Part shown: positions 3,884 to 58,508 of the stretch, piece by piece
Numbering within the stretch: position 1 is the first letter of the stretch
Layout: every line of letters begins with the position of its first letter
Assembly (NCBI GenBank): GCA_965365655.1
Contig: CBDUCN010000001.1
Location: 1-59,985, forward strand
DNA: 59,985 nucleotides
Origin: an uncultured Gammaproteobacteria bacterium
GTDB lineage: Bacteria > Pseudomonadota > Gammaproteobacteria > HK1
Reading direction: 5' to 3'
Made by a program: the position numbers and the translations under genes
The notes under the pieces: model-generated
Databases searched by the model: none
Seen by the model: the letters and a program-made list of their open reading frames with translations, nothing else
Told to the model about the DNA's origin: nothing

Positions 3884-5371
3884 TCAGAACCGCTCGATGT
3901 CCGGGAACGGCAGCTCGCCGTGGTGCACGTGCATGCCGCCGATCTCGGCGCAGTGCGCGAGCGTGGGCACCGCCTTGCCGGGATTCAGCAGCCCGTCCGG
4001 ATCGAAGGCCGCCTTCACGGCGTGGAACTGCGTGAGCTCGGCGGCCGCGAACTGGGTGCACATGCCGCCGATCTTCTCCACCCCGACGCCGTGCTCGCCG
4101 CTGATGGTGCCGCCCACCTCCACGCACAGGTCGAGGATCTTCGCTCCCAGCTCCTCCACCTGCTCGATCGCGCCGGGCTGGTTCGCGTCGTACAGGATCA
4201 GCGGGTGCAGGTTGCCGTCGCCGGCGTGGAACACGTTCATCACCGGCAGGCCGTAGTCCTTCGACAGCGCCTCCATGCGCGCGAGCACCGTCGGCAGCTC
4301 GCGGCGCGGGATCGTGCCGTCCATGCAGTAGTAGTCCGGCGACAGCCGCCCGGCCGCGGGAAAGGCCGCCTTGCGCCCGGCCCAGAAGCGCATGCGTTCG
4401 GCCTCGTCCTTCGCGACCCGCACCTCGGTGGCGCCGCACTCGCCGAGCAGCCTTCGCACCGCGTCGATCTGGTCGGCCACCTCCTCCTCGGTGCCGTCGA
4501 GCTCGCACAGCAGGATCGCGGCGGCGTCGGTGGGGTAGCCGGCCCCGCAGAAATCGTCGGTCGCCCGGATCGCGAAGTTGTCCATCATCTCGAGGCCGCC
4601 AGGCACGATGCCGCCGGAGATGATGTGGCCCACCGCGGCGCCGGCCGCCTCCACGCTGTCGAAGGCCGCGAGCATCACCTTCGCGCACGACGGCTTCGGC
4701 AGCAGCTTCACGGTGACCTCCACGATCACGCCGAGCAGGCCCTCGGAGCCGGTCATCAGCGCGAGCAGGTCGTAGCCCGCGGCGTCCGGCGCGTGCGAGC
4801 CGATGGTGACCCGCTCGCCGTCCACCGTGACCACCTCGAGCTCGAGGATGTTGTGCACGGTGAGGCCGTACTTCAGGCAGTGCAGGCCGCCCGCGTTCTC
4901 CGCGACGTTGCCGCCGATGCTGCACGCGATCTGCGACGACGGATCCGGCGCGTAGTACAGGCCGTGCGGGGCGGCCGCCTCGGAGATCGCGAGGTTGCGC
5001 ACACCGGGCTGCACCCGCGCGGTGCGCGCCGCCGGGTCCACGTCCAGGATGCGGTTGAAGCGCGCGAGGCTGAGCAGCACGCCGTCGGCCAGCGGCAGCG
5101 CGCCGCCGGACAGTCCGGTGCCGGCGCCGCGCGCGACCACCGGGATGCCGTGCGCGCTGCAGCGGCGCATCACCTCCTGCACCTGCTCGATGGTGTCCGG
5201 AAGCACGGCCAGCATCGGCAGCTGGCGATACGCGGTGAGGCCGTCGCACTCGTAGGGCCTCAGGTCCTCGTCCTCGCTCAGCACCGCGGCGGCGGGCAGG
5301 AACTCGCGGAACTCGCGCGCGAGCGCGGCGCCGCCGGCGCGGTTGCGCTCGACCGGGGCCGTGGCGGTCAT
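3884..5371 (-). CDS. glcD: Glycolate oxidase subunit GlcD (FAD-linked oxidase)
   Basis: FAD-binding PCMH-type sequence (VVARGAGTGLSGGALP, HAGDGNLHP, ISGEHGVG). I prefer ATG 5371 (MTATAPVE...) because it forms an ATGA overlap with the iclR stop. The track ORF extends to 5407. Confidence 0.9.
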   Translation of the reverse strand: MTATAPVERNRAGGAALAREFREFLPAAAVLSEDEDLRPYECDGLTAYRQLPMLAVLPDTIEQVQEVMRRCSAHGIPVVARGAGTGLSGGALPLADGVLLSLARFNRILDVDPAARTARVQPGVRNLAISEAAAPHGLYYAPDPSSQIACSIGGNVAENAGGLHCLKYGLTVHNILELEVVTVDGERVTIGSHAPDAAGYDLLALMTGSEGLLGVIVEVTVKLLPKPSCAKVMLAAFDSVEAAGAAVGHIISGGIVPGGLEMMDNFAIRATDDFCGAGYPTDAAAILLCELDGTEEEVADQIDAVRRLLGECGATEVRVAKDEAERMRFWAGRKAAFPAAGRLSPDYYCMDGTIPRRELPTVLARMEALSKDYGLPVMNVFHAGDGNLHPLILYDANQPGAIEQVEELGAKILDLCVEVGGTISGEHGVGVEKIGGMCTQFAAAELTQFHAVKAAFDPDGLLNPGKAVPTLAHCAEIGGMHVHHGELPFPDIERF

Positions 5372-7980: not shown

Positions 7981-9507
7981 TTGAGCGCTGCTCGAGGGAC
8001 ACCGACGCGATCCGCGGCGTGGCTGGCGTGCGCGCTGTGGCTGGTTGCCGCCGGCTGCGGGGCCGGCGAGCCGCAGGTGCTGCGATTCGGTATCGCGAAC
8101 GCGCCGGAGAACCTGGATCCGCGAACCGCCACCGACGCGGCATCCACCCGCGTCAACCGGCTGCTGTACGCGCGGCTGGTGGATTTCGACGAGCAGTTCC
8201 GCCCGGTGCCCGCGCTGGCGCGCTGGGAGCAGATCACGCCGCTGCGCTACCGCTTCCACCTGCGCGACGGGCGCCGCCCGTTCCACGACGGCACGCCGCT
8301 CACCGCCCAAGACGTCGTCGCGACCTACCGCGACGTGCTGGACCCGGCCGGCGGCTCGCCGCACCGCGGCTCGCTGCACATGGTGGCCGCCGTGGACGCG
8401 CTGGACGCGGACACGGTCGAGTTCACCCTGTCGGCGCCCGACGCGCTGTTCCCGGGGCGCCTCGTGGTCGGGATCCTCCCGCGCCGGGCGCTGACGGCGG
8501 GCCGCGCGTTGTCCCGCGAGCCGGTCGGCAGCGGGCCCTTCCGCTTCGTGTCGTGGCCCGGTCCGGAGCGCCTGCGCATCCAGCGCCTGGACGACGGCGC
8601 GATGGTGGAATTCCAGCGCGTGTCGCGCCCGGACGTGCGCCTGCTGAAGCTGCTGCGCGGCGAGCTGGACGCGCTGCAGGGCGACCTGCCGCCGGAGCTG
8701 CTCGGCTGGCTGCAGCGCCAGCGCGAGGTGCAGGTGATCGAGCGCGAGGGCACCACCTTCGCGTACCTGGGCTTCAACATGCGCGACCCGGTGACCGGCG
8801 ATCCGCGGGTGCGCAGGGCGGTCGCGCACGCGCTAGACCGCGACGCGATCATCCGTCACCTGTGGGCCGGCGGGGCGCGCCCGGCGAGCGGCGTCCTGAC
8901 GCCGGACCATTGGGCCGGGCACCCGGCGCTCGCGGCGCCGGCGCACGACCTGGACGCCGCGCGTCGGCTGCTCGCGGAGGCCGGCTACGGTCCCGGGCGG
9001 CCTGCACGGCTCGTGTACAAGACGTCGACCAACCCGGTGCGGGTGCGCATCGCGAGCGTGATCCAGCACCAGCTCTCGCGCGCCGGCATCGAGGTGGATC
9101 TGCGCACCTACGACTGGGGCACCTTCTACGGTGACATCAAGAGCGGCAACTTCCAGCTCTACAGCCTGGCCTGGGTGGGCATCAAGATGCCGGACATCTT
9201 CCGCTACGCGTTCCACAGCGCGTCCATGCCGCCGCAGGGCGCGAACCGCGGGCGCTGGGCGGACGACGAGGTGGACGCGCTGATCGCGGCCGCGGAGGCG
9301 GCCCCGGATCTCGCCGCGCAGGCGCGGCTGTACCGGCGCGTGCAGGAGCGCGTGATGGAGGCGCTGCCCTACGTCCCGCTGTGGTACGAGAGCCAGGTGT
9401 TCGCCGCGCGGCCCGGGGTGCGCGGCTACCGGCTGACGCCCGACGGCAGCTACGACGGGCTGGTGCAGGCGCGCTGGGACGAGCCGGCCCGGCAGCGTGC
9501 GCCGTGA
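7981..9507 (+). CDS. ABC-transporter substrate-binding lipoprotein, family 5 (peptide/nickel, DppA/OppA/MppA-like)
   Basis: 508 aa from a TTG start. Lipobox LVAAGC, then typical family-5 sequence (FGIANAPENLDPR, FNMRDPV, YKTSTNP). No permease or ATPase genes are adjacent. Confidence 0.85.
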   Translation: MSAARGTPTRSAAWLACALWLVAAGCGAGEPQVLRFGIANAPENLDPRTATDAASTRVNRLLYARLVDFDEQFRPVPALARWEQITPLRYRFHLRDGRRPFHDGTPLTAQDVVATYRDVLDPAGGSPHRGSLHMVAAVDALDADTVEFTLSAPDALFPGRLVVGILPRRALTAGRALSREPVGSGPFRFVSWPGPERLRIQRLDDGAMVEFQRVSRPDVRLLKLLRGELDALQGDLPPELLGWLQRQREVQVIEREGTTFAYLGFNMRDPVTGDPRVRRAVAHALDRDAIIRHLWAGGARPASGVLTPDHWAGHPALAAPAHDLDAARRLLAEAGYGPGRPARLVYKTSTNPVRVRIASVIQHQLSRAGIEVDLRTYDWGTFYGDIKSGNFQLYSLAWVGIKMPDIFRYAFHSASMPPQGANRGRWADDEVDALIAAAEAAPDLAAQARLYRRVQERVMEALPYVPLWYESQVFAARPGVRGYRLTPDGSYDGLVQARWDEPARQRAP

Positions 9508-10118: not shown

Positions 10119-11093
10119 TCACGCCTTCTTCAGGAGCTCCGCCGGCGCGCGCTCGAGCTCGATCTTCATCGCCATCCGCTGCTGGGCGCGCACGAGGTAG
10201 TCGATGGTCGCCAGGTCGCGCTCGCCGAGGCCCAGCGCCGTCTCCACCCACACCTCCGCCATGCGCTGCAGCGCGCTCCGGTCGAGCGGGGTCGCCGCGT
10301 CGACGGCGCGCCGGAACGCGGCGCGAGCGTGGTGCTGGCGGTCGTGGCTGCGGATCCAGCGCGCCACCGCGATCTCGCCTTCGCCTTCTTCGGCCAGCAC
10401 GTCCACCACGCCCAGCGCGTGCAGCTCTTCCGCGCGGTAGGTGCGCCCGCCGAGGATGATGCGCTCCGCCTCGGCCGGGCCGACGCGCCGGCTCAGGAAC
10501 TGCCACGCGCCCATCCCGGGGAACATGTTGAACAGCACCTCCGGCAGGCCCATCTTGCTGCCGCGCTCGGCGACCAGCACGTGCGCCGAGAGCGCCGCCT
10601 CGAAGCCGCCGCCGAGGGCCTGGCCGCGCACCAGCGCGATGGTGGTCACCGTGTGGCCGTAGCCCGTCGCGTTGGCGTGCACGAGGTCCACCGCGTCCAT
10701 CGCGTAGCGGCGCAGCGTGGTCGCGTCCTGGCGGTCGATGCAGTCACGGAACAGCGCGAGGTCGCCACCGAGGCTGAATACGCCGGGCACGTCGGACGCG
10801 AGCACCTGGTAGCGCGGCGCCCGTTCGCCGTGCCGCTCGCTCAGGTACGCGGCGATGCGATCCTGCAGGCCGCGCAGCTCGCCGAGCAGGTCCGGCGTGA
10901 AGCGGGCAGGGCACTCCGGGCGCAGGCGCACCCACAGCGTGCCCGGGTCCTGATCCACGGCCACCTCGCAGTGCTCCGTGGAGCGCGGTGCGGCCGCGGC
11001 GGGCGGGCGGCGGTGTCGGGGCGCGGCCTCGACGAGCCGTGGTATCGCGCCGGTGGATGGCTCATGAGATGAAAAGTCGCTGGAAACGTGCAT
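10119..11093 (-). CDS. Crotonase-superfamily protein resembling DSF-family signal synthases (RpfF / Bcam0581-like)
   Basis: 324 aa with YQVLASDVPGVFSLGGDLALF, ALGGGFEAALS, GLPEVLFNMFPGMGAWQFL and IDYLVRAQQR. From memory these match RpfF-type enzymes rather than ordinary FadB-type hydratases, and both crotonase catalytic Glu positions are present. Strong RBS (GGGAGGGG) 5-7 nt before ATG 11093. Confidence 0.7.
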   Translation of the reverse strand: MHVSSDFSSHEPSTGAIPRLVEAAPRHRRPPAAAAPRSTEHCEVAVDQDPGTLWVRLRPECPARFTPDLLGELRGLQDRIAAYLSERHGERAPRYQVLASDVPGVFSLGGDLALFRDCIDRQDATTLRRYAMDAVDLVHANATGYGHTVTTIALVRGQALGGGFEAALSAHVLVAERGSKMGLPEVLFNMFPGMGAWQFLSRRVGPAEAERIILGGRTYRAEELHALGVVDVLAEEGEGEIAVARWIRSHDRQHHARAAFRRAVDAATPLDRSALQRMAEVWVETALGLGERDLATIDYLVRAQQRMAMKIELERAPAELLKKA

Positions 11094-11247
11094 GGAACCC
11101 CTCCCAGAGGCTTGTTGTCAGCCCCTTTCTTGATTGCTGAGTCGCGTGATTCGCGGCCGTTCGCGACACGGCCTGTTACCAGCATATGAGGGGGTTGCCC
11201 GTGTACCAAGAAACTTCTTCTTTGTGTCGTGAAGCGTTGTCGTGCGC

Positions 11248-11277
11248 CTGTAAAGAACTGTAAAGAAGTGTAACCAA
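11248..11277 (+). promoter_or_regulatory. Three 10-bp-phased direct repeats (CTGTAAAGAA CTGTAAAGAA GTGTAACCAA), candidate OmpR/PhoB-type response-regulator box
   Basis: Read directly in the divergent intergenic region between the crotonase gene (ATG 11093) and the ACP gene (ATG 11457). A near-identical box occurs at 19614-19633. Confidence 0.45.
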
Positions 11278-11302: not shown

Positions 11303-11331
11303 TTGTCTGCGCGTGGCCGGGGCCCTACATT
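11303..11331 (+). promoter_or_regulatory. Candidate sigma70 promoter of the ACP-KS-exporter operon
   Basis: TTGTCT-17 nt-TACATT (11303-11308 and 11326-11331), just downstream of the direct-repeat box and about 125 nt upstream of the ACP ATG. Hexamers are weak. Confidence 0.25.
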
Positions 11332-11456: not shown

Positions 11457-11726
11457 ATGTCAGCTGTGATGCGCAACGACAGCGTCGAGAGCCGGGTCCT
11501 GAGGGTGGTCACGGAGGTGCTCGCGCTCGACGAGGAGCCGCGCGACCTCGACCTGTCCATCACCCGCGAGCTGGCGCTGGACTCGCTGGACCAGCTGTCG
11601 CTGTTCATGGCCCTGGAGGACGAGTTCGGCGCGCGCATCCGCGAGGAAGACGCGGAGCGCATCGCGACGCTGCGTGACGTCGTCGAGTACATCCGAACCA
11701 GGATGAGGCTCGCCGCCGCCGAATGA
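11457..11726 (+). CDS. Acyl carrier protein (stand-alone)
   Basis: 89 aa, acidic, with the phosphopantetheine-attachment motif LALDSLDQLSLFMALEDEFG. GGAGG RBS lies about 10 nt upstream. Confidence 0.85.
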   Translation: MSAVMRNDSVESRVLRVVTEVLALDEEPRDLDLSITRELALDSLDQLSLFMALEDEFGARIREEDAERIATLRDVVEYIRTRMRLAAAE

Positions 11727-13096
11727 CGCGGCGGGTGGTCGTCACCGGCCTCGGAGTCATCAGCAGCTTCGGTGACGACCCAGAGGGGTTCTGGCGCGAC
11801 TGCCTCGCGGGGCGCGGCGTCGCGGAACCGATCCCGGACGCGTGGCGGGACTACGCGACGCTGCGCTCCTCGCTGTGGGCGCCGATCACGCTCCCCGATT
11901 TCTCCACCGGCTTCTCGCGCGTCGAGCGCTCGCAGCACGATCCGGTGACGCTGATGGCCTGCGCGAGCGCCGCACAGGCGCTCGAGGGCGCCGGCATCGA
12001 GAGCCGGGTGGTGGACCGCCGCAGCAACGCCCGCGCGCTGGACGGGGTGTCGTCCGAGCGCTGCGCGGTGTTCGTCGGGACCGGGGTCGGCGGCGCGCAC
12101 AGCTTCATGCAGAACCACGCGTACCACGTCCTCGCGCATGCCCGGGAGCGGCTGCAGGGACTGCGTGGGCAGGCGCGTGACCCGGCGCTGGTCGAGGGCA
12201 TGGACGCGCTGCTGGCGAGCATGGAGCACGCGCCGCGCTTCAATCCGTTCGTGGTCTCGATGCTGATGCCCAACGCGCCCTCGGCCTACCTCGGCATCAA
12301 GTACGGGCTGCGAGGGCCGAACGCGGCCTGCGTGCAGGCCTGCGCGTCCGGCACGGTGGCGGTGGGCCGCGCGTGGCAGGCCATCGCCGAGGGGCATGCG
12401 GACTGCGCGCTCGCGGGCGGCACCGAATACCTGGACGACCCGCGGGGCAGCATCTTCCTCGGCTTCGACATCTGCAGGGCCCTCGTGCGCGACTGCGATC
12501 CGCCCGAGACGGCCAACCGTCCGTTCGATGCCGCCCGCTCGGGCTTCCTGTTCGCGCAGGGCGGCGCCGCGATGCTGATGCTGGAGAGCGCAGAGCACGC
12601 GGCGGCCCGCGGCGCGCGCACACTGGCCGAGGTGGTGGCCTTCGCCGAGAGCTTCGACGCGCACAGCATGATGAGCCCGGAGCCGCACGGGCGGGCCATG
12701 GAGGCGATGCTGCGCGATCTGCTCGTGCGCGGCGGGATCGGCCCCGGTGACGTGGACTACGTGAACGCTCACGGCACCGGGACGCACAGCAACGACGCCT
12801 GCGAGGCGGCCGTGATCGAGCGTGTGTTCGGCTCGCGGGTCGCGGTGAACTCGACGAAGTCGCTGCTCGGCCACACCATCGGCGCGAGCGGCGCCATCGA
12901 GGCGGCGGTCACGGCGCTCAGCCTGCGGGACCAGCGGCTGCACCCGAGCCGCAACCTGAGCGAGCCCATCGCGGACCTCGACTTCGTGACCCACGCGCAG
13001 GCGCGCGACCTGCGCTTTGCCGTCAGTCAGTCCTTTGCGTTCGGCGGACACAATGCAGCCCTCCTCATGGCGCGCGCCGACGTCGCCGGGGGCTGA
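11723..13096 (+). CDS. Beta-ketoacyl-ACP synthase (KAS I/II, FabF/FabB-like elongating type)
   Basis: 457 aa with RRVVVTGLGVISSFG, active-site Cys in VQACASGTVAVG, and His residues in VNAHGTGT and LLGHTIGASG. ATGA overlap with the ACP stop. Confidence 0.9.
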   Translation: MTRRVVVTGLGVISSFGDDPEGFWRDCLAGRGVAEPIPDAWRDYATLRSSLWAPITLPDFSTGFSRVERSQHDPVTLMACASAAQALEGAGIESRVVDRRSNARALDGVSSERCAVFVGTGVGGAHSFMQNHAYHVLAHARERLQGLRGQARDPALVEGMDALLASMEHAPRFNPFVVSMLMPNAPSAYLGIKYGLRGPNAACVQACASGTVAVGRAWQAIAEGHADCALAGGTEYLDDPRGSIFLGFDICRALVRDCDPPETANRPFDAARSGFLFAQGGAAMLMLESAEHAAARGARTLAEVVAFAESFDAHSMMSPEPHGRAMEAMLRDLLVRGGIGPGDVDYVNAHGTGTHSNDACEAAVIERVFGSRVAVNSTKSLLGHTIGASGAIEAAVTALSLRDQRLHPSRNLSEPIADLDFVTHAQARDLRFAVSQSFAFGGHNAALLMARADVAGG

Positions 13097-15428
13097 GGGC
13101 GCGAGCGGGTCCGGCAGCCCGCCGCAGCCCGCCCCCGCCGAGCCGCCGCACTCGCCCGTGGCCGATGCCTGGCTGGCGTTCCTGGAGCGCCGGCGTGCGC
13201 TCGTGCTGGCGTTGATCGCGCTGGTGCTGCTCGCGGCCGCCGGCGGCGTGCCGCGGCTGCAGGTTGCCGGCAACTACGAGGTCTACTTCGACGAGACCAA
13301 CCCCCGGCTCGAAGCGCTGAACGCGCTGCACGCACGCTTCTCGCGCAACGACAACGTGCTGTTCGCGCTGGTGCCGGAGGGCGGCAACGCGTTCTCGCCG
13401 GCGACGCTGGCCGCTGCCGCGACGCTGACCGCGCAGGCCTGGCACCTGCCCTACGCGGCGCGGGTGGACTCGGTCACGAACTACCAGCACATCACCTCCA
13501 CCGAGGACGGGATTGCGATCGGCGACCTGGTGCCCGACCCCGCCGCGCTTGACGAGGAGACGGCAGCGCAGGTGCGCGCCACGGCGCTCCACCAGCCGGC
13601 GCTGGTGCGTCGGCTGGTGGCCCCGTCGGGGCAGGTGATCGGCGTGAACGTGCGCCTGGCGCTGGGCGACGACTCCCGTTCGGAGGTGCTCGAGGCCGCG
13701 GCGGCGGCGCGCGAGCTGGCGGCGAGCATCGAGGGCGAGCACCCGGGCCTGCGGGTGCTGCTCACCGGCAACGCGATGCTCAACGCCGCATTCTCCGAGG
13801 CCAGCATTCGCGATCTCACGCACCTGACGCCGTTCATGTACCTCGCCATCGGGCTCGGGCTGTGGCTGCTGCTGCGCAGCGCCGGCGCGGCGCTGCAGGC
13901 GATGACGGTGGTGGCGCTCGCGTCGCTGTTCGCGATGGGCATGGCGGGCTGGCTGGGACTGCCGGTGAGCTCGGGGTCGGTGGTCGCGCCCACCATCGTC
14001 ACCACCGTGGCCGTCGCGGACTGCATCCACCTGCTGGCGAGCTTCCTGGGGCCGCGCTCGCGCGGCGTCCCGACCCGGGAATGCGTGAGGCAGTCGCTGG
14101 GGCTGAACCTGCGTCCCGTCGCGATCACCAGCCTGACCACCGCGGTGGGTTTCCTCAGCCTCAACTTCAGCGACGCCCCGCCGTTCCGGGACCTGGGCAA
14201 CATCACCGCGCTCGGGGTCGCGGCCGCCTTCGCGATGAGCGTGGCGCTGCTGCCGATCATGATGCTGGTCCTGCCGCCGCGGCCCGGACGGCCCCCGCGG
14301 CTGCGGCTGGACGCGCTGGGCGCGAGCATCATCGCCCGCCGCCGGATGGCCTTCGCGGCGGTGCTGGTCGTCACCGCGGCAGGCGCCGCGCTGCTGCCGC
14401 GCATGCAGCTCAACGACGCTTTCGTCGAGTACTTCGACGAGAGCCTGTCGTTTCGCCGCGACACCGATCTCGTGATGGCGACTCTGACCGGGATCTACCA
14501 GGTGGACTACGTCCTCGAGGCCGGCGCGGCGCACGGCGTGAACGCGCCTGAGTACCTCGAGGGCGTGCGACGCTTCGCGGCCTGGTTGCGGATGCAGCCG
14601 GAGGTGATGCACGTCGCCGACATCACCGAGGTGCTCACCCGGCTCAACGGCCACCTCGCCGGGGAGCGCGACGCACTCCCGTCCAGCCGCGATCAGGCCG
14701 CGCAGTATCTGCTGCTCTACGAGATGTCGGTGCCCTACGGGCTGGACCTCAACGACCGCCTGGACGTGGAGCGCGAGGCGAGCCGGGTCACGGTGACCCT
14801 GCGCAACCTCGACAACGCGAGCCTGCAGGCCTTCGAGGCGCGCGCCGCGGCCTGGATGGAAGCGAACCTGGCGCCGCAGCTGCACGCGCCGGCCGTCGGT
14901 GCGTCGGTGATGTTCGCCTACATCGCCGAGCGCAACATCCGCGCGATGCTGCGCGGCGCGGCGCTCGCGGTGGTCGTGATCGCGGCGCTGCTCGCGGTCG
15001 TCCTGCGCAGCGTGCGCCTGGGGTTGCTGAGCCTGCTTCCGAACCTGGTTCCGGCCGTGATCGCGTTCGGCGTCTGGGCGCTGACGGTCGGACAGATGGG
15101 CGTGGCCCTCGCGGTGGTCGCCGCGATGTCGCTGGGCGTGGTCGTGGACGACACCGTGCACTTCACGAGCAGCTTCCTGGCCGCACGTCGGCGCCTGCGG
15201 CTCGGCCCCGACGCTGCGGTGGCGCACGCTTTCGCACGCACCGGTACCGCGCTCGCGTCCACCTCGCTGGTGCTGGTCCTGGGCTTTGGCGTGCTGTCCA
15301 TGTCCGCGTTCGAGGTCAACCACGGCATGGGGCAGCTGTCGGCGCTGGTGATCGCCTGCGCCCTGGTGGCCGACCTGCTCATGCTGCCGCAGCTCCTGGC
15401 GTTCGCCGCGCGGCGCGGCTGGTGCTGA
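13053..15428 (+). CDS. RND-superfamily exporter of the MMPL/HpnN-like (COG1033) type
   Basis: Two 6-TM bundles, each preceded by a large soluble loop (TPFMYLAIGLGLWLLLRS..., GVVVDDTVHF...). The start is uncertain: TTG 13017 (track), ATG 13053, or GTG 13158 (VADAWLAFLERRRALVLAL). Confidence 0.8.
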   Translation: MQPSSWRAPTSPGAEGASGSGSPPQPAPAEPPHSPVADAWLAFLERRRALVLALIALVLLAAAGGVPRLQVAGNYEVYFDETNPRLEALNALHARFSRNDNVLFALVPEGGNAFSPATLAAAATLTAQAWHLPYAARVDSVTNYQHITSTEDGIAIGDLVPDPAALDEETAAQVRATALHQPALVRRLVAPSGQVIGVNVRLALGDDSRSEVLEAAAAARELAASIEGEHPGLRVLLTGNAMLNAAFSEASIRDLTHLTPFMYLAIGLGLWLLLRSAGAALQAMTVVALASLFAMGMAGWLGLPVSSGSVVAPTIVTTVAVADCIHLLASFLGPRSRGVPTRECVRQSLGLNLRPVAITSLTTAVGFLSLNFSDAPPFRDLGNITALGVAAAFAMSVALLPIMMLVLPPRPGRPPRLRLDALGASIIARRRMAFAAVLVVTAAGAALLPRMQLNDAFVEYFDESLSFRRDTDLVMATLTGIYQVDYVLEAGAAHGVNAPEYLEGVRRFAAWLRMQPEVMHVADITEVLTRLNGHLAGERDALPSSRDQAAQYLLLYEMSVPYGLDLNDRLDVEREASRVTVTLRNLDNASLQAFEARAAAWMEANLAPQLHAPAVGASVMFAYIAERNIRAMLRGAALAVVVIAALLAVVLRSVRLGLLSLLPNLVPAVIAFGVWALTVGQMGVALAVVAAMSLGVVVDDTVHFTSSFLAARRRLRLGPDAAVAHAFARTGTALASTSLVLVLGFGVLSMSAFEVNHGMGQLSALVIACALVADLLMLPQLLAFAARRGWC

Positions 15429-15516: not shown

Positions 15517-18153
15517 TCAGGCCTTGCGCCGCAGGTAGCTCACGAGCTCGCGGCGGGTGCCGTCGAATGCCTCGCGCAGCTCGTCCAGCGCGGCGCGCAC
15601 GGCCGGCTCGTCGCGTTGCGCGAGCGCCTGGTCCAGCGCCTCGGTGCCGTGCTCCACGGCCAGAGCGCCCACCGTGCGCGCGGCGCCGCGCAGCTCGTGG
15701 GCGTGCTCTCCCGCCGCGCTCCAGCCCTGGCGGTCGCGATCGGCGTCCAGGCTCGCGAGCAGCCGCTCGCCGTCGGCCACGAACTGGTCCAGAACCTCCT
15801 GCAGGAAGCCACCGCCGCCGTCCAGTCGAGACAGCCCCGCCAGCTTGTCGCGGTCGATGCTGGTGCCGGTCCACTGCCCGGCGGGCCCGGGGCGCGGTGC
15901 GCACGTCGCCGCCGCCGGTGCGCATGTCAGCGCGCTCGCGCCGGGGCGCGCCCTGGCGCCCGGAGCGGCCTGCCGGCCCGTGACCTGATCGAGGGTGTCG
16001 AGCAGGCGCCGCGGCTCCAGCGGCTTGGTCAGGTATGCATCGAAGCCTGCGTGGCGCGCAATGGACAGGGCGTCGGTGGTCGCGTTCGCCGTGAGCATGA
16101 TGAACGGGATGTAGCGCCGGTCCGCGTTCGCGATGCGGAACAGCTTCAGGGTGTCCACCCCGCCCAGCTCGGGCATCTGCATGTCCAGGATGCAGGCGTC
16201 GTAGTCGTGGCTGTCGAGGCACTCGAGCGCCTCGCGGCCGTCCTCGGTCAGCGTGACCCGGTGACCGGCCTGCTCCAGCACCCGGCTGATCACCTTGCGG
16301 TTCACCGGGTTGTCCTCCGCGACCAGCAGATCCAGGCTGCCGCCGCGCGGGGCCGGCTCGGCGTCGTCGGCGCGTGCCGGAGCCTCGGTGGCGGCCACCG
16401 CGCCGATGCGCTCGGCCGCCGGCTCGTAACCGGCGCTCGCGGCATGCACCGCGTTGAACAGGTACGCGTCGTCGATGGGGCGGTGCAGGATCGACGTGTA
16501 GCCGGCGCCCACCAGGGTCTCGGCGTCCGCGGTCTGCTCGCCGTCGGCAATCAGCACCAGCGGCAGGTCGGCCAGCGACGGCTCGCGATGCGCGGTGGCC
16601 GCGAAGCGCGCCGGATCGACGCTGAGCGCCTGCTGGTCGATCACCGCGACCTGGCAGCCGCGGTCGCCGCGGGCCCCGTCGACGAGACTCGCGAGCGCCT
16701 GCGCGTCGCTGCTCGCCACCGTGACCTTGTCCGCCCAGTGGCCGAGGCTGCGCCGCAGCCGGGTCGCGTCCAGCTCGGAGTTGCTGAGCAGCAGCACGTG
16801 GCCGATGCGGTTCCCGCCCGGCACGCCCGGCGCGTCGTCCGCCACCTCCGCCTGGCGCGCGAAGGACAGCGTGAACCAGAACCGGCTGCCCTGTCCGGGC
16901 GCGCTCTGCAGCCCGATTCGCCCGCCCATCAGCTCGACGAGCTGCTTCGCGATGGAGGTGCCGAGGCCGGTGCCGCCGTAGCGTCGGGTCACGGACTCGT
17001 CGGCCTGCGTGAAGCTGTCGAAGATGCGCGCCTGCACGTCGGCCGGCATTCCGATTCCCGTGTCGATGACCTCGAAGCGGATCTCGACGCCGTCCTCGCT
17101 GCTGCCCATCAGCGTGAGCCGCAGCTCCACGCTTCCCTCGTGCGTGAACTTCAGCGCGTTGCCGATCAGGTTGATGAGCACCTGGCGCAGGTGCTGCGGA
17201 TCTCCGCGCAGGCGGAACGGCACCGCCGCGTCGATGTAAGTGTTGAGCTGCAGCCCCTTGGCGCGGGCCTGGGGCGCGAACATCTTGCTGGTCGACTTCA
17301 CCAGCATGTGCAGGTCGCAGTCCGCCTCCTCCACCAGGACCTTCCCGGCCTCGATCTTCGAGATGTCCAGGATGTCGTTGAGCAGCTCGAGCAGCGCGTT
17401 GGCCGACGCATGGATCGTCTGCACGAAATCGCGTTGCTCGCGGTCCAGCCGTGTCTGCACCAGCAGGTCGCTCATCCCGATCACGCCCGACAGCGGCGTG
17501 CGGATCTCGTGGCTCATGTTGGCGAGGAACGTGCTCTTCGCACGGCTCGCGTCCTCGGCGCGCTGGATGGCGTCGTTCAGGCGGCGGATGAGCGCCGCGA
17601 CGTACAGCGGCAGCACGATCAGGCCGACCAGCACGCCCACGCCCAGGTACGGGTTCGCGCGCCAGTACTCGCTCATCGCGAGGGTGATGCCGAAGCCGGT
17701 GGCGCTCGCGACCATGGCCAGGTGCAGGTAACGGGTGCCGTAGCGGAAGCCGTTGCCGAAGGTGACCCAGAGGTAGACGACGAACAGCGGCGCGCCCGGC
17801 GCGCCGGTGCATGCCATCGCGTAGGTCGTGAAGCCGATGTCCACCGCCATGCCCAGCAGCCGTCGCAGCACCGAGCGCCGGGGCCACGCCGCCACGGCGG
17901 CGAGGATCACCACCGAAGAGGAGAGGAAGGCGAGACCCACCACGCGGTGGGTCGCGGACATGGTGTCGGGAGAGCCGTGCGCGAACACCCCGCCGCCGTA
18001 CAGATACGCGAGCACCAGCAGACCGATGCACACGCGCACGATGGCCTGCTCCGGCTCCGTGTCGGGGCAGCGCTTCAGGCGGTCGCGCAGCTTCAGTCCC
18101 GTCCTGGCGACGGTGCGGCGCAGCGAGTTCGGAGGAAGCAGATCCAGCAACAC
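15517..18153 (-). CDS. Hybrid sensor histidine kinase: multi-TM input, HisKA, HATPase, degenerate receiver, REC, HPt (RpfC-like domain order)
   Basis: 878 aa from a GTG start preceded by a GGAG RBS. Contains several N-terminal TM helices, H-box [17 protein letters not shown]-box [13 protein letters not shown]-boxes DTGIGM and [25 protein letters not shown]...[11 protein letters not shown], and HPt [12 protein letters not shown]. Confidence 0.9.
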
Positions 18154-18234: not shown

Positions 18235-19455
18235 TCAGCCAACGGCTCGCGCCCGCTGCTCGAGGGCCCGGCCGACGCGCGCGCGCTGGCGCGGGTTGTG
18301 GACGAGCCAGTCGCTGAACTCGCGTGCCGACATGGGCGGGCTGATGTGCAGGCCCTGGCCCACGTCGCAGCCCAGGCGTCCCAGCCAGCGCAGCGTCTGC
18401 TCGCTCTGGATCCCCTCGGCGACCACCGTCAGTCCCACGCTGCGCGCGAGGTCCAGGCTGGACCGGATCATCGCCGCGGCGTCCTCGCTGCGCTCCGCGC
18501 GCATCGCGAACTTCTTGTCCAGCTTCAGCGTCTCGTAGGGGAACTCGTTGAGCTGGCCCAGCGAGAACGCGCCGCTGCCGAAGTCGTCCAGCGCGAGGCG
18601 GATGCCCTTGAGGCGCAGCCGGCTCAGGGTATCGGTCATGCGCTGGCGGTTCTCGGGCATCGTGGTCTCGGTCACCTCGAGCACCAGGTCCTCCGGCCGC
18701 GCGCCGACGCGCGCGAGCAGCCGGCCGATTCGATCCGGCAGTGTCTGGTCGATCAGCAGCAGCGGGGAGACGTTCACCGCGACCTGGATGCGCGTGCTCG
18801 TGGTCTGCCAGTGCACGAGGTCCTCGAGGGCGCGCTGCAGCACCGCGAACGTGAGCGGCTCGATGAGCCCCGTTCGCTCGGCGACGGGCACGAACTGCTC
18901 GGGCAGCACGATCGCGGCGTTCGAGCGGTGCAGGCGCGCCAGCGCCTCGGCGCACACGACGCCTCCGGTGTTGAGGTTCACCATCGGCTGGTAGCACACC
19001 TCCAGCCGGTCGTCGCGCAGCGCCCGCGCCAGCTCCTCGCCGGTGATGGACTCCGGCGACGCGGCGGGCGCACCGGGCTGGTCGCGGAACGCCTTCAGCC
19101 GCCGGCGCACGTCGGCGACCATCAGCGGCTTGCGGATCGGGTCCAGCATCTGCAGTCCGAGGGACTCGCCCAGGGAGTGCGCGGCGCCGAGCAGGCGCTC
19201 GTCCACGCCGCTGGTCACGACGACGTGGGTGTCGCTGCGCTCGGACGCGATGAAGCGCAGCAGCTCGACGCCGTCGATGTTGCGCATGTTCAGGTCGAGG
19301 AACACGAGAGCCGGCTCGAAGGCGCGGAACGACGACTCGAAGAACTCGGCGTCCAGCACCGAGTGCACCTCGTAACCCACGCTCTCGCATGCCCTTTTGA
19401 GCACGCGGAGAATCCGGCGATCGTCGTCGACCGCGACGATGCGGGTACGTGACAT
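18235..19455 (-). CDS. Response regulator with EAL domain (REC-EAL c-di-GMP phosphodiesterase)
   Basis: REC domain: RIVAVDDDRRILRVL...VFLDLNM. EAL domain: CYQPMV, AEALARL, NVSP, LEVTE, LDDFGSGAFS, LKLDK, VAEGIQ, GQG. Start moved to ATG 19455 (MSRTRIV...). Confidence 0.85.
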   Translation of the reverse strand: MSRTRIVAVDDDRRILRVLKRACESVGYEVHSVLDAEFFESSFRAFEPALVFLDLNMRNIDGVELLRFIASERSDTHVVVTSGVDERLLGAAHSLGESLGLQMLDPIRKPLMVADVRRRLKAFRDQPGAPAASPESITGEELARALRDDRLEVCYQPMVNLNTGGVVCAEALARLHRSNAAIVLPEQFVPVAERTGLIEPLTFAVLQRALEDLVHWQTTSTRIQVAVNVSPLLLIDQTLPDRIGRLLARVGARPEDLVLEVTETTMPENRQRMTDTLSRLRLKGIRLALDDFGSGAFSLGQLNEFPYETLKLDKKFAMRAERSEDAAAMIRSSLDLARSVGLTVVAEGIQSEQTLRWLGRLGCDVGQGLHISPPMSAREFSDWLVHNPRQRARVGRALEQRARAVG

Positions 19456-19594
19456 GGCTGCACCGCTTCTTGTTGTCGAGCGGCGTGCCCCGGGCCGATA
19501 CGTGCCGGATCCGGTGACCGCCGCCGTCATCGCCCGCCGATCCTTGGCGGGCGCGTACAAGGGGAACAATAGGCACGCAAGGTGCCTGCGTCCA

Positions 19595-19633
19595 CTAAAG
19601 AATTGATTCCGTACTGTAAAGAACTGTTAAATC
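19595..19633 (+). promoter_or_regulatory. Second copy of the phased direct-repeat box (CTAAAGAA ... CTGTAAAGAA CTGTTAAATC)
   Basis: Positions 19614-19633 match 11248-11267 at 17 of 20 positions, with the first 14 identical. A third half-site, CTAAAGAA, lies 21 bp upstream. The box sits in the 203-bp gap upstream of the REC-EAL gene. Confidence 0.45.
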
Positions 19634-19658: not shown

Positions 19659-20405
19659 TCAAGCTGGGTCATGAAAAACGTTTTGTTCTCGGTTTTCGGA
19701 GCCCGGGGGCAGCGTCAGCGAGACCCGGGTGCCGGTCCCCGGCGCGCTCGTGATGCGAAGCTGCCCGCCGCTGGCGCGGGCGAAGCCGTCGACCACGCTG
19801 AGCCCGATGCCGCGGTGCTGCGCGTCCGGGCGGGTCGTGAAGTAGGGCTCGGTGCACCGCGCCAGCACCTCGGCGCTCATGCCCACGCCGTCGTCGGCGA
19901 CGGTGAGCGAGGGCGCGCCGCCGCCGTCCGTGCCGAGCGCGATGACCAGCGTGCCGCCGTCGGGCATCGCGTCGCGGGCGTTGGCGGCGAGCTCCATCAG
20001 CGCGTGCTGCAGCCGGACCGGGTCCACGCTCGCGATCGGCGTCGGCCCCGGGGCCGAGAGCGACACCGTGATCGCGCCGGGCAGGGCGCGCTCCAGCATC
20101 GGCGCCATGTCCCGCGCGAGCTGCTCGAGGTCGGTGGGCCGGGGGTTCAGCGCCTGCCGGCCGGCCCACGCGGTGAGCTGGGCGATGACGTCGGCCGCTT
20201 CGCGTGTCGCGGACACGACGTCGTCGTAGACCTCGTCCAGATCGGTGCCCCACGCCGACGCCGGAATCTCCTCGCGCAGCAGGCTCAGTCCGCCGAGGAT
20301 GATGCTGAACAGGTTGTTGAAGTCATGGCCCATGCGCCGCACCAGGAGCGGGGCGCTCATGGACTCGGGCGGGGGCTGCGGCGGGATCGCGTCTTCTGGG
20401 CTCAT
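19659..20405 (-). CDS. Cytoplasmic histidine kinase lacking an obvious sensor domain
   Basis: H-box VRRMGHDFNNLFSIILGG, N-box ELAANARDAM, G1 DDGVGM, G2 GIGLSVV. Start moved to ATG 20405 (MSPEDAI...), giving about 248 aa consisting essentially of DHp plus CA domains. Confidence 0.75.
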   Translation of the reverse strand: MSPEDAIPPQPPPESMSAPLLVRRMGHDFNNLFSIILGGLSLLREEIPASAWGTDLDEVYDDVVSATREAADVIAQLTAWAGRQALNPRPTDLEQLARDMAPMLERALPGAITVSLSAPGPTPIASVDPVRLQHALMELAANARDAMPDGGTLVIALGTDGGGAPSLTVADDGVGMSAEVLARCTEPYFTTRPDAQHRGIGLSVVDGFARASGGQLRITSAPGTGTRVSLTLPPGSENREQNVFHDPA

Positions 20406-20583
20406 GACCGGGAGCAACCTGGGACGGGGAGAAGCAACGGCGTCGAAGGCTATACTAGCGAAATGTCTGGCGAAGTTATCCGGTCCCGACCGCGCCGTGG
20501 TCCCACCTCCTCGCCGGGCAGCGCTCTGCCGTGCGGCGGCGACGGCGCGACAGCGCGCCGGTAGGCGAGCACGGATCGGCACC

Positions 20584-21306
20584 ATGTCCGCGCCGCCCGG
20601 GATTCTCATCGTCGATGACGATCCGCGGCTGCGCCGGTTGCTCGCGCGCTTCCTTCTGCGCGAGGGCTACCAGGTGCGCGAGGCCGCGAACGCGGACGAG
20701 ATGCGCCGCGCGCTGACGCTGCGCGGAGCCGACCTGATCGTGCTCGACCTGATGCTGCCCGGCGAGGACGGGCTGAGCCTCGCGCGCGAGCTGCGCGCGA
20801 CCTCCGACGTGCCGATCGTGATGCTCACCGGCAAGGGCAGCACGGTGGACAAGGTCGTGGGTCTCGAGGTGGGCGCGGACGACTACATCACGAAGCCCTT
20901 CGACGAGCGGGAGCTGCTGGCGCGGATCCGCACGGTGCTGCGCCGTACCGGCAACCGCCTCGCGTCGGCGCCGGAGTCGCCGGAGCGGCGCATGGCGCGC
21001 TTCGAGGGCTTCTCGGTGGACATGGTCGCGCACGAGGTGGTGGCTCCGGACGGCCGCCACGTCGAGTTCACCGGCAACGAGTTCCAGCTCCTCGCGTCGC
21101 TGATCGTGCGCCCGCAACGCGCGCTGTCGCGCCAGGAGATCCTGGAGCTGGTGTTCCGCCGCGAGTGGTCGCCCAGCGACCGCAGCATCGACGTGCTGGT
21201 CGCGAAGCTCAGGCGCAAGCTCGGCGACGATCCCCGCCACCCCCACATGATCAAGACCGTGCGCGGGGTCGGCTACAAGTTCACCGCCTCGGTGGAGTTC
21301 AGCTGA
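20584..21306 (+). CDS. OmpR/PhoB-family response regulator (REC + winged helix)
   Basis: ILIVDDDPRLRRLL, IVLDLMLPGEDG, and C-terminal VLVAKLRRKLGDDPRHPHMIKTVRGVGYKF. Start at ATG 20584. The track ORF (20245) carries an implausible extension. Confidence 0.9.
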   Translation: MSAPPGILIVDDDPRLRRLLARFLLREGYQVREAANADEMRRALTLRGADLIVLDLMLPGEDGLSLARELRATSDVPIVMLTGKGSTVDKVVGLEVGADDYITKPFDERELLARIRTVLRRTGNRLASAPESPERRMARFEGFSVDMVAHEVVAPDGRHVEFTGNEFQLLASLIVRPQRALSRQEILELVFRREWSPSDRSIDVLVAKLRRKLGDDPRHPHMIKTVRGVGYKFTASVEFS

Positions 21307-21436: not shown

Positions 21437-21527
21437 GGAGAGGTACCGAAGCGGTCATAACGGCACCGACTCGAAATCGGTTGGTCCTTAACTGGGCACG
21501 TGGGTTCGAATCCCACCCTCTCCGCCA
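21437..21527 (+). tRNA. tRNA-Ser (anticodon CGA), CCA encoded
   Basis: Manual fold: acceptor GGAGAGG/CCTCTCC, anticodon stem ACCGA/TCGGT, loop CTCGAAA (CGA at 21472-21474), long variable arm, T-arm GGGTTCGAATCCC, discriminator G plus CCA. Confidence 0.9.
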
Positions 21528-57110: not shown

Positions 57111-57244
57111 TTGACACCGCGCCGCCGGCCTCCTACCTTTACCTGACAGCGCCGATTTGATCCGTCAGCTTGCGGGCGCTTTATAAATACGGCTAAAGCG
57201 AGGCAGAACCTGCCTTGGCTTCCGCTGACGGCGGGTTTTTTTTT
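57111..57244 (+). promoter_or_regulatory. Candidate promoter plus ~95-nt structured RNA ending in a U9 tract, upstream of metZ (leader attenuator, riboswitch-like element or sRNA; class unassigned)
   Basis: TTGACA (57111-57116) - 17 nt - TACCTT (57134-57139). 8-bp outer helix CCGTCAGC (57162-57169) / GCTGACGG (57224-57231) encloses two hairpins: CGCTTTA/TAAAGCG (57177-57200) and AGGCAG-AAC-CTGCCT (57201-57215). T9 runs from 57236 to 57244. Confidence 0.4.
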
Positions 57245-57275
57245 GCCCGCGCGGCGCGCGGGCGGGAGCTGTCAG

Positions 57276-58508
57276 ATGAGTACACGCAGGGTGATGCCGG
57301 CGGACGCCGGCCCGGCGACCCGGGCGGTGCGCGCCGGCCAGGAGCGCACCCACGAGGGGGAGCACAACGACCCCATCTTCACGACCTCGAGCTTCGTGTT
57401 CGACAGCGCGGCGCAGGCCGCGGCGCGCTTCTCGGAGACCGAGCCGGGCAACGTCTACTCACGCTTCACGAATCCCACGGTGCGCGCGTTCGAGCAGCGT
57501 CTCGCGGCGATGGAGGGCGCGCGGCACGGCGTCGCGACGGGCTCCGGCATGGGCGCGATCCTGACCACCTGCCTCGCGCTGCTGCGCGCCGGGGATCACG
57601 TGGTGGCCGCGGACAGCCTGTTCGGCTCGACCCTCGGGCTGTTCCGCAACGTGCTGGGCCGCTTCGGCGTGGAGACCGATTTCGTACCGGTCGCCGACGT
57701 CGACGCGTGGCGGGCCGCGGTCCGCCCGCACACGCGGCTGCTGTTCGTGGAGACACCCACCAACCCGCTGGCCGAGGTCGCGGACATCGCGGCCCTCTCG
57801 GCGCTCGCGCGGGACCACGATGCGCTGCTCGCGGTGGACAACTGCTACTGCACGCCGGCGCTGCAGCGCCCGCTGGAATTCGGCGCGCACGTGGTGATCC
57901 ACTCGGGCACGAAGTATCTGGACGGCCAGGGCCGCTGCGTGGGCGGCGCGGTGATCACCGACGACGACAAGGTGCGCGACGCGGTCTACGGCCTCGTGCG
58001 CACCGGCGGCACCAGCCTGAGCCCGTTCAACGCGTGGGTGTTCCTGAAGGGGCTGGAGACGCTGTCGCTGCGCATGCGCGCGCACTGCGAGGCCGCGTTG
58101 GACCTCGCGCGCTGGCTGGCCGTGCAGCCTCGCGTCACCCGGGTGCACTACCCGGGGCTCGAGCAGCACCCGCAGCACGCGCTGGCGGCGCGCCAGCAGT
58201 CCGGCTTCGGCGGCATCGTGGCCTTCGAGATCGACGGCGGGCGGGAGCAGGCCTTCGCGTTCATCGACGCGACGCAGTGGCTGTCCATCACCGCGAACTT
58301 CGGCGACGCGAAGAGCACGATCACGCACCCGGCGAGCACCACCCACGGCCGGCTGAGCGCCGCGGAGCGCGAGGAGGCCGGGGTGCGGGAGAACCTGATC
58401 CGGGTCTCGGTGGGGCTCGAGGACGTGGACGACATCCGCGCCGAGCTCGCCCGCGGCCTGGAAGCCGCCGCTGCGACCGGACGGCTGCGGCCGGCCGCGA
58501 ACGGATGA
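57276..58508 (+). CDS. metZ: O-succinylhomoserine sulfhydrylase
   Basis: PLP-dependent Cys/Met-metabolism family: TSSFVFDSAAQAAARF, NVYSRFTNPTV, HSGTKYLDGQG (PLP Lys). Start at ATG 57276 with a GGGAG RBS. Confidence 0.9.
   Translation: MSTRRVMPADAGPATRAVRAGQERTHEGEHNDPIFTTSSFVFDSAAQAAARFSETEPGNVYSRFTNPTVRAFEQRLAAMEGARHGVATGSGMGAILTTCLALLRAGDHVVAADSLFGSTLGLFRNVLGRFGVETDFVPVADVDAWRAAVRPHTRLLFVETPTNPLAEVADIAALSALARDHDALLAVDNCYCTPALQRPLEFGAHVVIHSGTKYLDGQGRCVGGAVITDDDKVRDAVYGLVRTGGTSLSPFNAWVFLKGLETLSLRMRAHCEAALDLARWLAVQPRVTRVHYPGLEQHPQHALAARQQSGFGGIVAFEIDGGREQAFAFIDATQWLSITANFGDAKSTITHPASTTHGRLSAAEREEAGVRENLIRVSVGLEDVDDIRAELARGLEAAAATGRLRPAANG

Follow-up and report, generated by a model that had tools for sequence, protein, structure and literature searches.

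Conserved GTAAA tandem repeats at two promoters of a diffusible signal factor-like gene cluster, a probable operator of its OmpR-like regulator

Known signalling systems in the family of diffusible signal factor (DSF) reach transcription through Clp or RpfR-GtrR and, to our knowledge, not through an OmpR-type regulator. Among the described operators of OmpR/PhoB-family regulators, the pho box is built of 7-bp CTGTCAT repeats with a 4-bp spacer and has an 11-bp period. The CpxR consensus is 5'-GTAAA-N(4-8)-GTAAA-3' (PMC5063474). The OmpR site measures 20 bp, consists of two 10-bp sub-elements that are bound by two molecules in tandem and comes in arrays of two or three (PMC3050692), with TGTAAC/GxxAC as its critical core (PMC7867234). 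Here we analysed 59,985 nucleotides of contig CBDUCN010000001.1 from an uncultured gammaproteobacterium (the whole stretch, hereafter the window), which by its gene content contains a DSF-like, i.e. fatty-acid, signalling cluster with a putative RpfF-like synthase. Two arrays of GTAAA repeats, box 1 and box 2, lie at the two promoter regions of this cluster. We favour, with a probability of about 60%, the reading that they form a conserved tandem-repeat operator through which the OmpR-like regulator of the cluster keeps the operons for signal synthesis and signal perception in step, probably as an activator. The most likely binder, as far as gene content tells, is the regulator encoded at 20584-21306.

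The repeats read from the window are:

11248-11277, plus strand: box 1, the units (C)TGTAAAGAA, (C)TGTAAAGAA and (G)TGTAACCAA at 10-bp phasing, corresponding to GTAAA-N5-GTAAA-N5-GTAAC
11229-11248, plus strand: CGTGAAGCGT and TGTCGTGCGC, a pair of weaker units that keep the phase of box 1, read from the sequence
19614-19633, plus strand: box 2, CTGTAAAGAACTGTTAAATC, between the stop of a small histidine kinase gene (19659) and the ATG of a REC-EAL gene (19455)
19594-19603, plus strand: extra unit ACTAAAGAAT, found by the repeat finder as a 17-nt direct repeat with a spacing of 21

Box 1 is composed of CTGTAAAGAA (11248-11257), again CTGTAAAGAA (11258-11267) and GTGTAACCAA (11268-11277). The repeat finder reported units 1 and 2 as a 10-nt direct repeat of 100% identity with 10-nt spacing, in agreement with the triple repeat of exact 10-bp phasing that a first-pass annotation, made from the sequence alone, had read here. 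The units start at 11249, 11259 and 11269, forming head-to-tail half-sites at a period of exactly 10 bp, one helical turn apart. The strong units carry GTAAA, and unit 3 carries TGTAAC (11269-11274). The two weaker units possibly serve as low-affinity sites on the crotonase side; at the matching place, the orthologous locus L083 has a strong unit, TGTGAAGAGGG. Box 2 consists of CTGTAAAGAA followed by CTGTTAAATC, i.e. (C)TGTAAAGAA plus a degenerate (C)TGTTAAATC, and shares with box 1 the exact 14-mer CTGTAAAGAACTGT. The first-pass annotation had called the second box near-identical to the first, which is valid only for the first 14-17 nt, because its second unit is degenerate. The extra unit ACTAAAGAAT, which abuts the predicted -35 element, is at a distance of 21 nt, or two helical turns, from the strong unit of box 2. 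The distances given earlier are correct: 155 nt to the crotonase ATG (11093) and 180 nt to the ATG of the acyl carrier protein (ACP) gene (11457) from box 1, and 159 nt from the REC-EAL ATG (19455) to 19614.

These arrays are rare in the window. Exact matches of TGTAAAGAAC occur at 11249 and 19615 only, and a search for the 20-mer with up to three mismatches returned box 1 only, with 0 expected. The pattern GTRAA-N5-GTRAA matches once in the 60-kb window versus 0.01 expected matches, and phased pairs appeared in 0 of 200 first-order Markov simulations of the window, scored with a matrix derived from the other loci only. Exact, mismatch and pattern searches found no third copy in the window, as had been claimed.

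Because the closest species-representative genomes have crotonase matches of only 51-54% identity at best, footprinting was performed on metagenome contigs; the window sequence itself was found in marine-sediment and mangrove DNA metagenomes. A first set of loci comprised contigs with crotonase homologues of 99, 86, 63, 60, 62 and 53% identity, in all of which the gene order is kept and the box is present. By locus, the crotonase identity is 86% in L081, 63% in L083, 60% in L087 and 51% in L001. A second, independent set (L091, L092, L093, L098 and L099) was collected via homologues of the regulator, which are 73, 75, 62, 66 and 71% identical; the same cluster was seen again, with phased GTRAA/GTAAN units at both positions. 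Counterparts of box 1 were found in L081, L082, L083, L087, L088, L089, L001, L091, L098 and L099, and counterparts of box 2 at the same place in L083, L087, L088, L091, L092, L093 and L099, and upstream of the hybrid histidine kinase gene in L098. Representative units are:

L081, crotonase/ACP intergenic region: TGTAAAGAAG TGTAAAGAAA TGTAACCAAG
L083, crotonase/ACP intergenic region: TGTGAAGAGGG TGTGAAGAAT CGTAAAGAAT TGTATTCCTT
L087, crotonase/ACP intergenic region: CGTGAAGAAA TGTAAATAAA TGTATCGTTC
L088, crotonase/ACP intergenic region: CGTAAAGAAT CGTGAATAAA TGTATCGTTT
L089, crotonase/ACP intergenic region: TGTGAAGTAAA CGTAAAGAAG TGTAAAGAAA
L083, small-kinase stop to REC-EAL start: CGTAAAGAAG TGTGAAGAG TGTGAAGCGC
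L087, small-kinase stop to REC-EAL start: TGTAAAGAAG TGTGAAGTTG
L088, small-kinase stop to REC-EAL start: TGTAAAGAAA CGTGAAGTTT

Altogether, tandem (Y)GTRAAGAA/GTAAN units occupy two fixed positions in one orientation in every syntenic locus, across about ten diverged lineages that span crotonase identities of 51-86% and GC contents of 56-73%, several of the loci lying outside the training set of the matrix. The first position is the divergent crotonase/ACP intergenic region, and the second reaches from the stop of the small kinase gene to the next gene, usually that for REC-EAL. The same orientation at both sites, noted earlier for the window, is thus kept in all syntenic loci. The unit consensus is YGTRAAGAAN with a GTAAA/GTRAA core, and the period is 9-11 bp in the orthologues compared to exactly 10 bp in the window. 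The boxes also follow the cluster through rearrangements: in L092 no gene for a crotonase, an ACP or a hybrid kinase was called, yet a box upstream of the ketosynthase gene is kept, and L098, which lacks REC-EAL, has its second array directly upstream of the hybrid kinase gene, still just past the small-kinase gene. In these variant loci the arrays lie at:

L092: 3448-3467 and 9125-9154
L098: ~4340-4370 and ~9000-9050

We scanned 1.4 Mb of loci L001-L089 with a position matrix of the units, counting two hits 9-11 nt apart as a match. Apart from the syntenic loci, pairs turned up only in L001 and in a single AT-rich region of L064. L001, a metagenome-assembled genome (MAG) of the Ectothiorhodospiraceae held out of the matrix, has its pair ~150 nt upstream of the crotonase gene in the same orientation. 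Since the box follows the cluster through genomes of 56-73% GC, chance and mere AT-richness are ruled out; on this sequence comparison the boxes are conserved cis-elements at both cluster promoters. The L064 hit (14072-14220; TGTAAATAAATTGTAACCAAA and ACTAAAGAAGTGTAAAGATT) falls between genes of a Methylophilaceae MAG, in extremely AT-rich DNA, and was set aside, judged to be either chance or an unrelated genuine OmpR-type site; it lies upstream of an open reading frame starting with MQVNKIKLAL, possibly an outer-membrane protein.

The layout of the boxes, with a CpxR/OmpR-type half-site in 10-bp tandem repeats conserved at both promoters, supports the proposal that they have the architecture of OmpR-family sites. 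The more specific likening to pho boxes is looser. The two share head-to-tail direct repeats for an OmpR/PhoB-family dimer beside a poor -35, but a 10-bp period and GTAAA stand here against an 11-bp period and CTGTCAT, and PhoB models give the cluster regulator a lower score than OmpR does; because pho boxes differ in period and half-site, CpxR and OmpR sites make the better comparison. The CpxR box has an identical half-site, a published spacing that includes N5 and the same tandem direct repeat for an OmpR-family winged-helix regulator, and its consensus is matched by 11250-11264 (GTAAAGAACTGTAAA). However, with 156 bits for the CpxR equivalog model, versus a cut-off of 341, the cluster regulator does not qualify as a CpxR orthologue, its partner is a soluble sensor-less kinase instead of CpxA, the targets are of quorum-sensing type instead of envelope-stress genes, and three to five units stand in a row compared to two.

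The OmpR sites of ompF and ompC (F1-F3, C1-C3) resemble the boxes in being arrays of 10-bp sub-elements upstream of weak promoters, in the TGTAAC core, carried by unit 3 only, and in the DNA-binding domain of the regulator, which is closest to that of OmpR. They differ in that the strong units here are GTAAA and not GxxAC, that neither an EnvZ-like partner nor porin targets are present, and that the regulator remains below the OmpR equivalog cut-off. As a check, regions of E. coli K-12 were scanned with the unit matrix. Its only hit in 4.5 kb was TGTAAAACAACGTAAAGTCA (GTAAA-N5-GTAAA) in the cpxR-cpxP intergenic region, whereas the ompF and ompC regions scored low, except that the 9-mer of unit 3, TGTAACCAA, also occurs upstream of ompF with a GTAAA 10 nt later. 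Because the matrix picked the cpxR-cpxP site and scored ompF and ompC otherwise low, the motif, judged from its letters, resembles half-sites of the CpxR type more closely than those of the OmpR type. In the ompC-micF region of E. coli, the phased pair with the highest score, TGAAAAGTGTGTAAAGAAGGGTAAAAAAA (L095 2171-2199, minus strand), is at the 3' end of micF, away from the known C1-C3 sites, and is probably a chance match in AT-rich DNA. A CRP/Clp-type site was also considered, given a TGTGA in some orthologous units, and rejected, as the repeats are direct and not inverted.

The genes of the cluster are:

10119-11093, minus strand: crotonase, RpfF-like putative DSF synthase (Pfam, NCBIfam)
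11457-11726, plus strand: ACP (Pfam, NCBIfam)
11723-13096, plus strand: FabF-like ketosynthase (Pfam, NCBIfam)
~13017-15428, plus strand: MMPL transporter (Pfam, NCBIfam)
15517-18153, minus strand: hybrid histidine kinase, HisKA-HATPase-REC-Hpt, with an RpfC-like domain layout (Pfam, NCBIfam)
18235-19455, minus strand: REC-EAL, a response regulator of the cyclic di-GMP (c-di-GMP) phosphodiesterase type, first gene downstream of box 2 (Pfam, NCBIfam)
19659-20405, minus strand: small soluble histidine kinase with DHp and CA domains only and the H-box MGHDFNNLF, divergent from the regulator gene
20584-21306, plus strand: OmpR-like response regulator (REC and Trans_reg_C), the candidate binder (Pfam, NCBIfam)

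The crotonase, ACP, REC-EAL and OmpR-type labels of the first-pass annotation agree with these family assignments. The crotonase scores 323 bits against the PRK08788 equivalog, above the cut-off of 177, and 229.6 bits against the RpfF equivalog, below the cut-off of 550; its homologues in Gammaproteobacteria MAGs are labelled 'DSF synthase' by the Joint Genome Institute. Compared to the Rpf system of Xanthomonas (RpfF, RpfC, RpfG and Clp) and the Burkholderia DSF (BDSF) system (RpfF and RpfR), the cluster likewise has an RpfF-like crotonase beside a hybrid kinase that carries REC and Hpt domains, together with a response regulator of the c-di-GMP phosphodiesterase type. It differs in the output enzyme, which is REC-EAL and not an RpfG-type REC-HD-GYP, and in the added ACP, ketosynthase, MMPL transporter and second two-component pair with the OmpR-like regulator. 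No account of such a cluster with an OmpR-type regulator came up in a search of the literature.

Within the conserved cluster, the regulator alone is a DNA-binding protein. Among NCBIfam models it matches OmpR best (248.6 bits, short of the equivalog cut-off of 331), it shares the helix motif RSIDVxxxxLRR with OmpR, and the closest solved structures to its C-terminal domain alone are E. coli OmpR C-domains, including the OmpR chains of 6LXL-6LXN. It is also the most conserved protein of the cluster, with 81% identity in L083 and 78% in L087, where the crotonase has 63% and 60% and the small kinase 57% and 56%. The recognition helix, DRSIDVL[VI][AG]KLR[RK]K, hardly varies across orthologues that are 62-84% identical, which fits a conserved DNA specificity. 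Every locus that reaches far enough contains the regulator gene, divergent from the small kinase gene; the divergent HATPase_c kinase was seen in L083, L087, L091, L092, L093, L098 and L099. The two-component pair, described earlier as an extra system, is instead an integral and conserved part of the cluster. The first-pass annotation had named this regulator as the candidate binder that would tie the synthesis and perception operons together, and all computational tests run here are in line with that proposal. The small kinase has 248 residues, carries no sensor or transmembrane domain and has CckA-type kinases among its best NCBIfam matches. From its position it is the probable partner kinase of the regulator; a protein partner, c-di-GMP or the Hpt domain may be named as speculative inputs.

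Some side observations concern this gene pair. The intergenic region between the small-kinase and regulator genes holds TATACTAG at 20451-20458, kept in the window, L083 and L090, with the variants TATACTAA in L091 and TATACTAT in L099; it stands at a constant ~40-46 nt from the small-kinase start codon with no GTAAA units nearby and is probably the -10 element of that gene (TAGTAT, minus strand). A tRNA-Ser gene with anticodon CGA (21437-21527, plus strand) follows 130 nt downstream of the regulator gene, and in L093 an integrase gene adjoins the orthologous regulator.

The strongest competing explanation, to which we give a minor but real share, accepts the boxes as a genuine operator and assigns them to another OmpR/CpxR-family regulator elsewhere in the genome, such as a housekeeping OmpR or CpxR orthologue. 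The cluster would then be tied to envelope or osmotic stress, and its own regulator would act on other targets. The half-site is exactly the CpxR consensus and resembles the OmpR sub-elements, the cluster regulator stays below the equivalog cut-offs of both OmpR and CpxR, and no box lies upstream of the regulator gene. Against this, the boxes travel with the cluster and its regulator across GC contents and through the rearrangements of L092 and L098, always at the cluster promoters; the 60-kb window encodes no other OmpR-type regulator; and the recognition helix is conserved in parallel with the motif.

How the boxes would act depends on the promoters that they serve, which we predicted from conserved hexamers:

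11181-11209, minus strand: predicted crotonase promoter, -35 TTGGTA (reverse complement of 11204-11209), 17 nt, -10 TATGCT (reverse complement of 11181-11186)
11303-11331, plus strand: predicted ACP-ketosynthase-MMPL promoter, -35 TTGTCT (11303-11308), 17 nt, -10 TACATT (11326-11331)
19566-19595, minus strand: predicted REC-EAL promoter, -35 GTGGAC (reverse complement of 19590-19595), ~18 nt, -10 TATTGT (reverse complement of 19566-19571)

On the crotonase side, a -10 of the form TATNCT/TACTCT keeps a fixed position in eight loci with a poor -35 17 nt upstream, and the last strong unit is 165-176 nt from the crotonase ATG across eight loci. On the ACP side, the hexamers are identical in L081, and L083, L087, L088, L089 and L092 have TTTACC, 17 or 18 nt, and TAGCAT, TACCAT or TAGTAT. 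On the REC-EAL side, a strong unit is followed after 18-19 nt by GTGGAC, GTGGAT or GGACTT and after a further 17-18 nt by TATNGT, a spacing seen in five lineages (the window, L083, L088, L091 and L092). The starts predicted from these hexamers are at about 11174 (crotonase), about 11338 (ACP) and about 19559 (REC-EAL). If the predicted promoters hold, the strong pair of box 1 would be centred at about -84 for the crotonase gene and about -80 for the ACP gene, and the units of box 2 would span about -35 to -75 of the REC-EAL promoter; overall, the units would lie at about -35 to -104 from weak, positionally conserved -35/-10 candidates. This geometry, measured from predicted starts, suggests activation, for which it is the usual one at promoters with a poor -35. 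The box could also be imagined as a promoter in itself, since its reverse complement contains TTTACA, which would make a good -35. This reading was rejected: a -10 is missing at the required 16-18 nt, and the conserved -10 candidates are ~45-60 nt further downstream.

The same geometry bears on a second alternative, namely that the boxes are indeed sites of the cluster regulator, which would serve there as a repressor or roadblock and, for instance, keep the synthase and receptor genes off at low signal. OmpR-family regulators can repress, the units of box 2 reach the predicted -35 (19594-19603 beside 19590-19595), and box 1 stands between divergent promoters, where an oligomer could occlude or loop the DNA. 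Nevertheless, relative to the predicted starts the strong units have their centres at about -65 to -84, upstream of poor -35 hexamers, as is usual for activation, and we regard repression as improbable, somewhat more so than binding by a foreign regulator.

Far less probable is that the boxes are AT-rich repeats for a nucleoid-associated or architectural protein (IHF, Fis or an H-NS-like protein), or that they work without a dedicated regulator as a UP-like element or an intrinsic bend. It is true that the boxes occupy the two lowest-GC 100-nt bins of the region (0.51 and 0.45, versus 0.73 for the whole window, precisely 72.7%) and that their A-tracts are in helical phase. However, what is conserved is the GTRAA core including its G and T positions and not AT-richness alone, the core persists in genomes of 56% GC where AT-richness is not unusual, and winged-helix response regulators typically have sites with such a strict direct-repeat orientation and unit register. 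Least probable of all is that the similarity is due to chance or is left over from a duplication, or that it marks an element acting at the RNA level, in the 3' untranslated region (UTR) of the small kinase or the 5' UTR of the ACP gene, with no DNA-binding role: box 2 may indeed be transcribed, because it lies only 26-45 nt past the small-kinase stop and precedes a terminator-like hairpin, but the element is kept in about ten lineages at two loci, no Rfam family overlaps the boxes, the repeat finder showed no stem-forming complementarity among the units, and box 1 lies upstream of both predicted divergent promoters.

Several observations weigh against an activating operator of the cluster regulator. 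A consensus sigma-70 scan found no site in either intergenic region; the predicted promoters match the consensus at 8 of 12 positions, are under the threshold of that scan and are supported by conservation only. A search for RNA runs that contain the locus found none; all runs with it were DNA metagenomes from sediment and mangrove. The terminator-like hairpin (19575-19591, minus strand), ACGCAGGCACCTTGCGT followed by GCCTATTGTT, lies between box 2 and REC-EAL and overlaps the spacer between the predicted -35 and -10; because it is not conserved in the orthologous loci, we left it out of the element. The small-kinase/regulator intergenic region has no GTAAA units in the window or in L083, and for this reason we see no evidence of autoregulation by the regulator. 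The co-occurrence of regulator and box is non-discriminating, in that no locus has one and not the other, and further OmpR/CpxR-type regulators with a similar half-site preference are probably encoded outside the 60-kb window. The assignment of the regulator to the boxes is, on these genomic data, guilt by association.

Apart from the operator, the 5' UTR of the crotonase gene contains a hairpin (11100-11125, minus strand) with a GGGGCU/AGCCUC stem and an ACAA-containing loop, directly 5' of the GGAGGGG Shine-Dalgarno sequence. It is kept in eight loci with compensatory changes in three of the six pairs and may be an element of translational control or of protein or small-RNA binding.

The surroundings of the cluster hold, on one flank, glcDEF-type oxidase genes and genes for IclR, TM2, an SBP_bac_5 protein and YkuD, and, further on along the other flank, leuB-asd-fimV and others. 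An Rfam match to the SAM_alpha (SAM-II) riboswitch (57139-57213, plus strand; 37.8 bits versus a gathering score of 36) sits at the start of the open frame of a pyridoxal phosphate-dependent enzyme gene of Cys/Met metabolism (57147-58508).

Returning to the favoured model of an operator for the cluster regulator, we propose the following course. The regulator would be phosphorylated by the adjacent sensor-less kinase and/or through the Hpt domain of the hybrid kinase, both presumed phosphodonors. The phosphorylated regulator would oligomerise head-to-tail on the units of array 1, which is flanked by the promoter of the RpfF-like crotonase gene and the divergent one of the ACP-ketosynthase-MMPL operon, and on those of array 2, which stands in the same orientation before the REC-EAL/hybrid-kinase operon. 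The oligomer would recruit RNA polymerase to promoters with poor -35 boxes, and the outcome would be a coordinated, feedback-type control of signal synthesis and perception. A more far-reaching version, which we hold to be possible though rather doubtful, is an undescribed DSF-family circuit of uncultured sediment Proteobacteria, in which the OmpR-like regulator, and not Clp or RpfR, would directly autoinduce the synthesis genes and the receptor operon via the GTAAA repeats. There the CckA-like small kinase would link phosphorylation of the regulator to the c-di-GMP level set by REC-EAL or to the Hpt domain of the hybrid kinase, closing a feedback loop of phosphorelay, c-di-GMP and transcription.

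The type of element, tandem direct repeats for a winged-helix response regulator, is textbook knowledge, which limits the conceptual novelty; new is its assignment to an uncharacterised variant of DSF-like clusters with REC-EAL and an OmpR-type output. If the favoured model is true, a widespread, uncharacterised cluster variant of marine and mangrove sediment bacteria would gain a regulator with its operator, and a matrix to scan for it. Synthesis and perception genes would be co-regulated from one type of site, making the wiring of the circuit testable even though the organisms are uncultured, and an OmpR-type transcription factor would join the known outputs of the DSF family.

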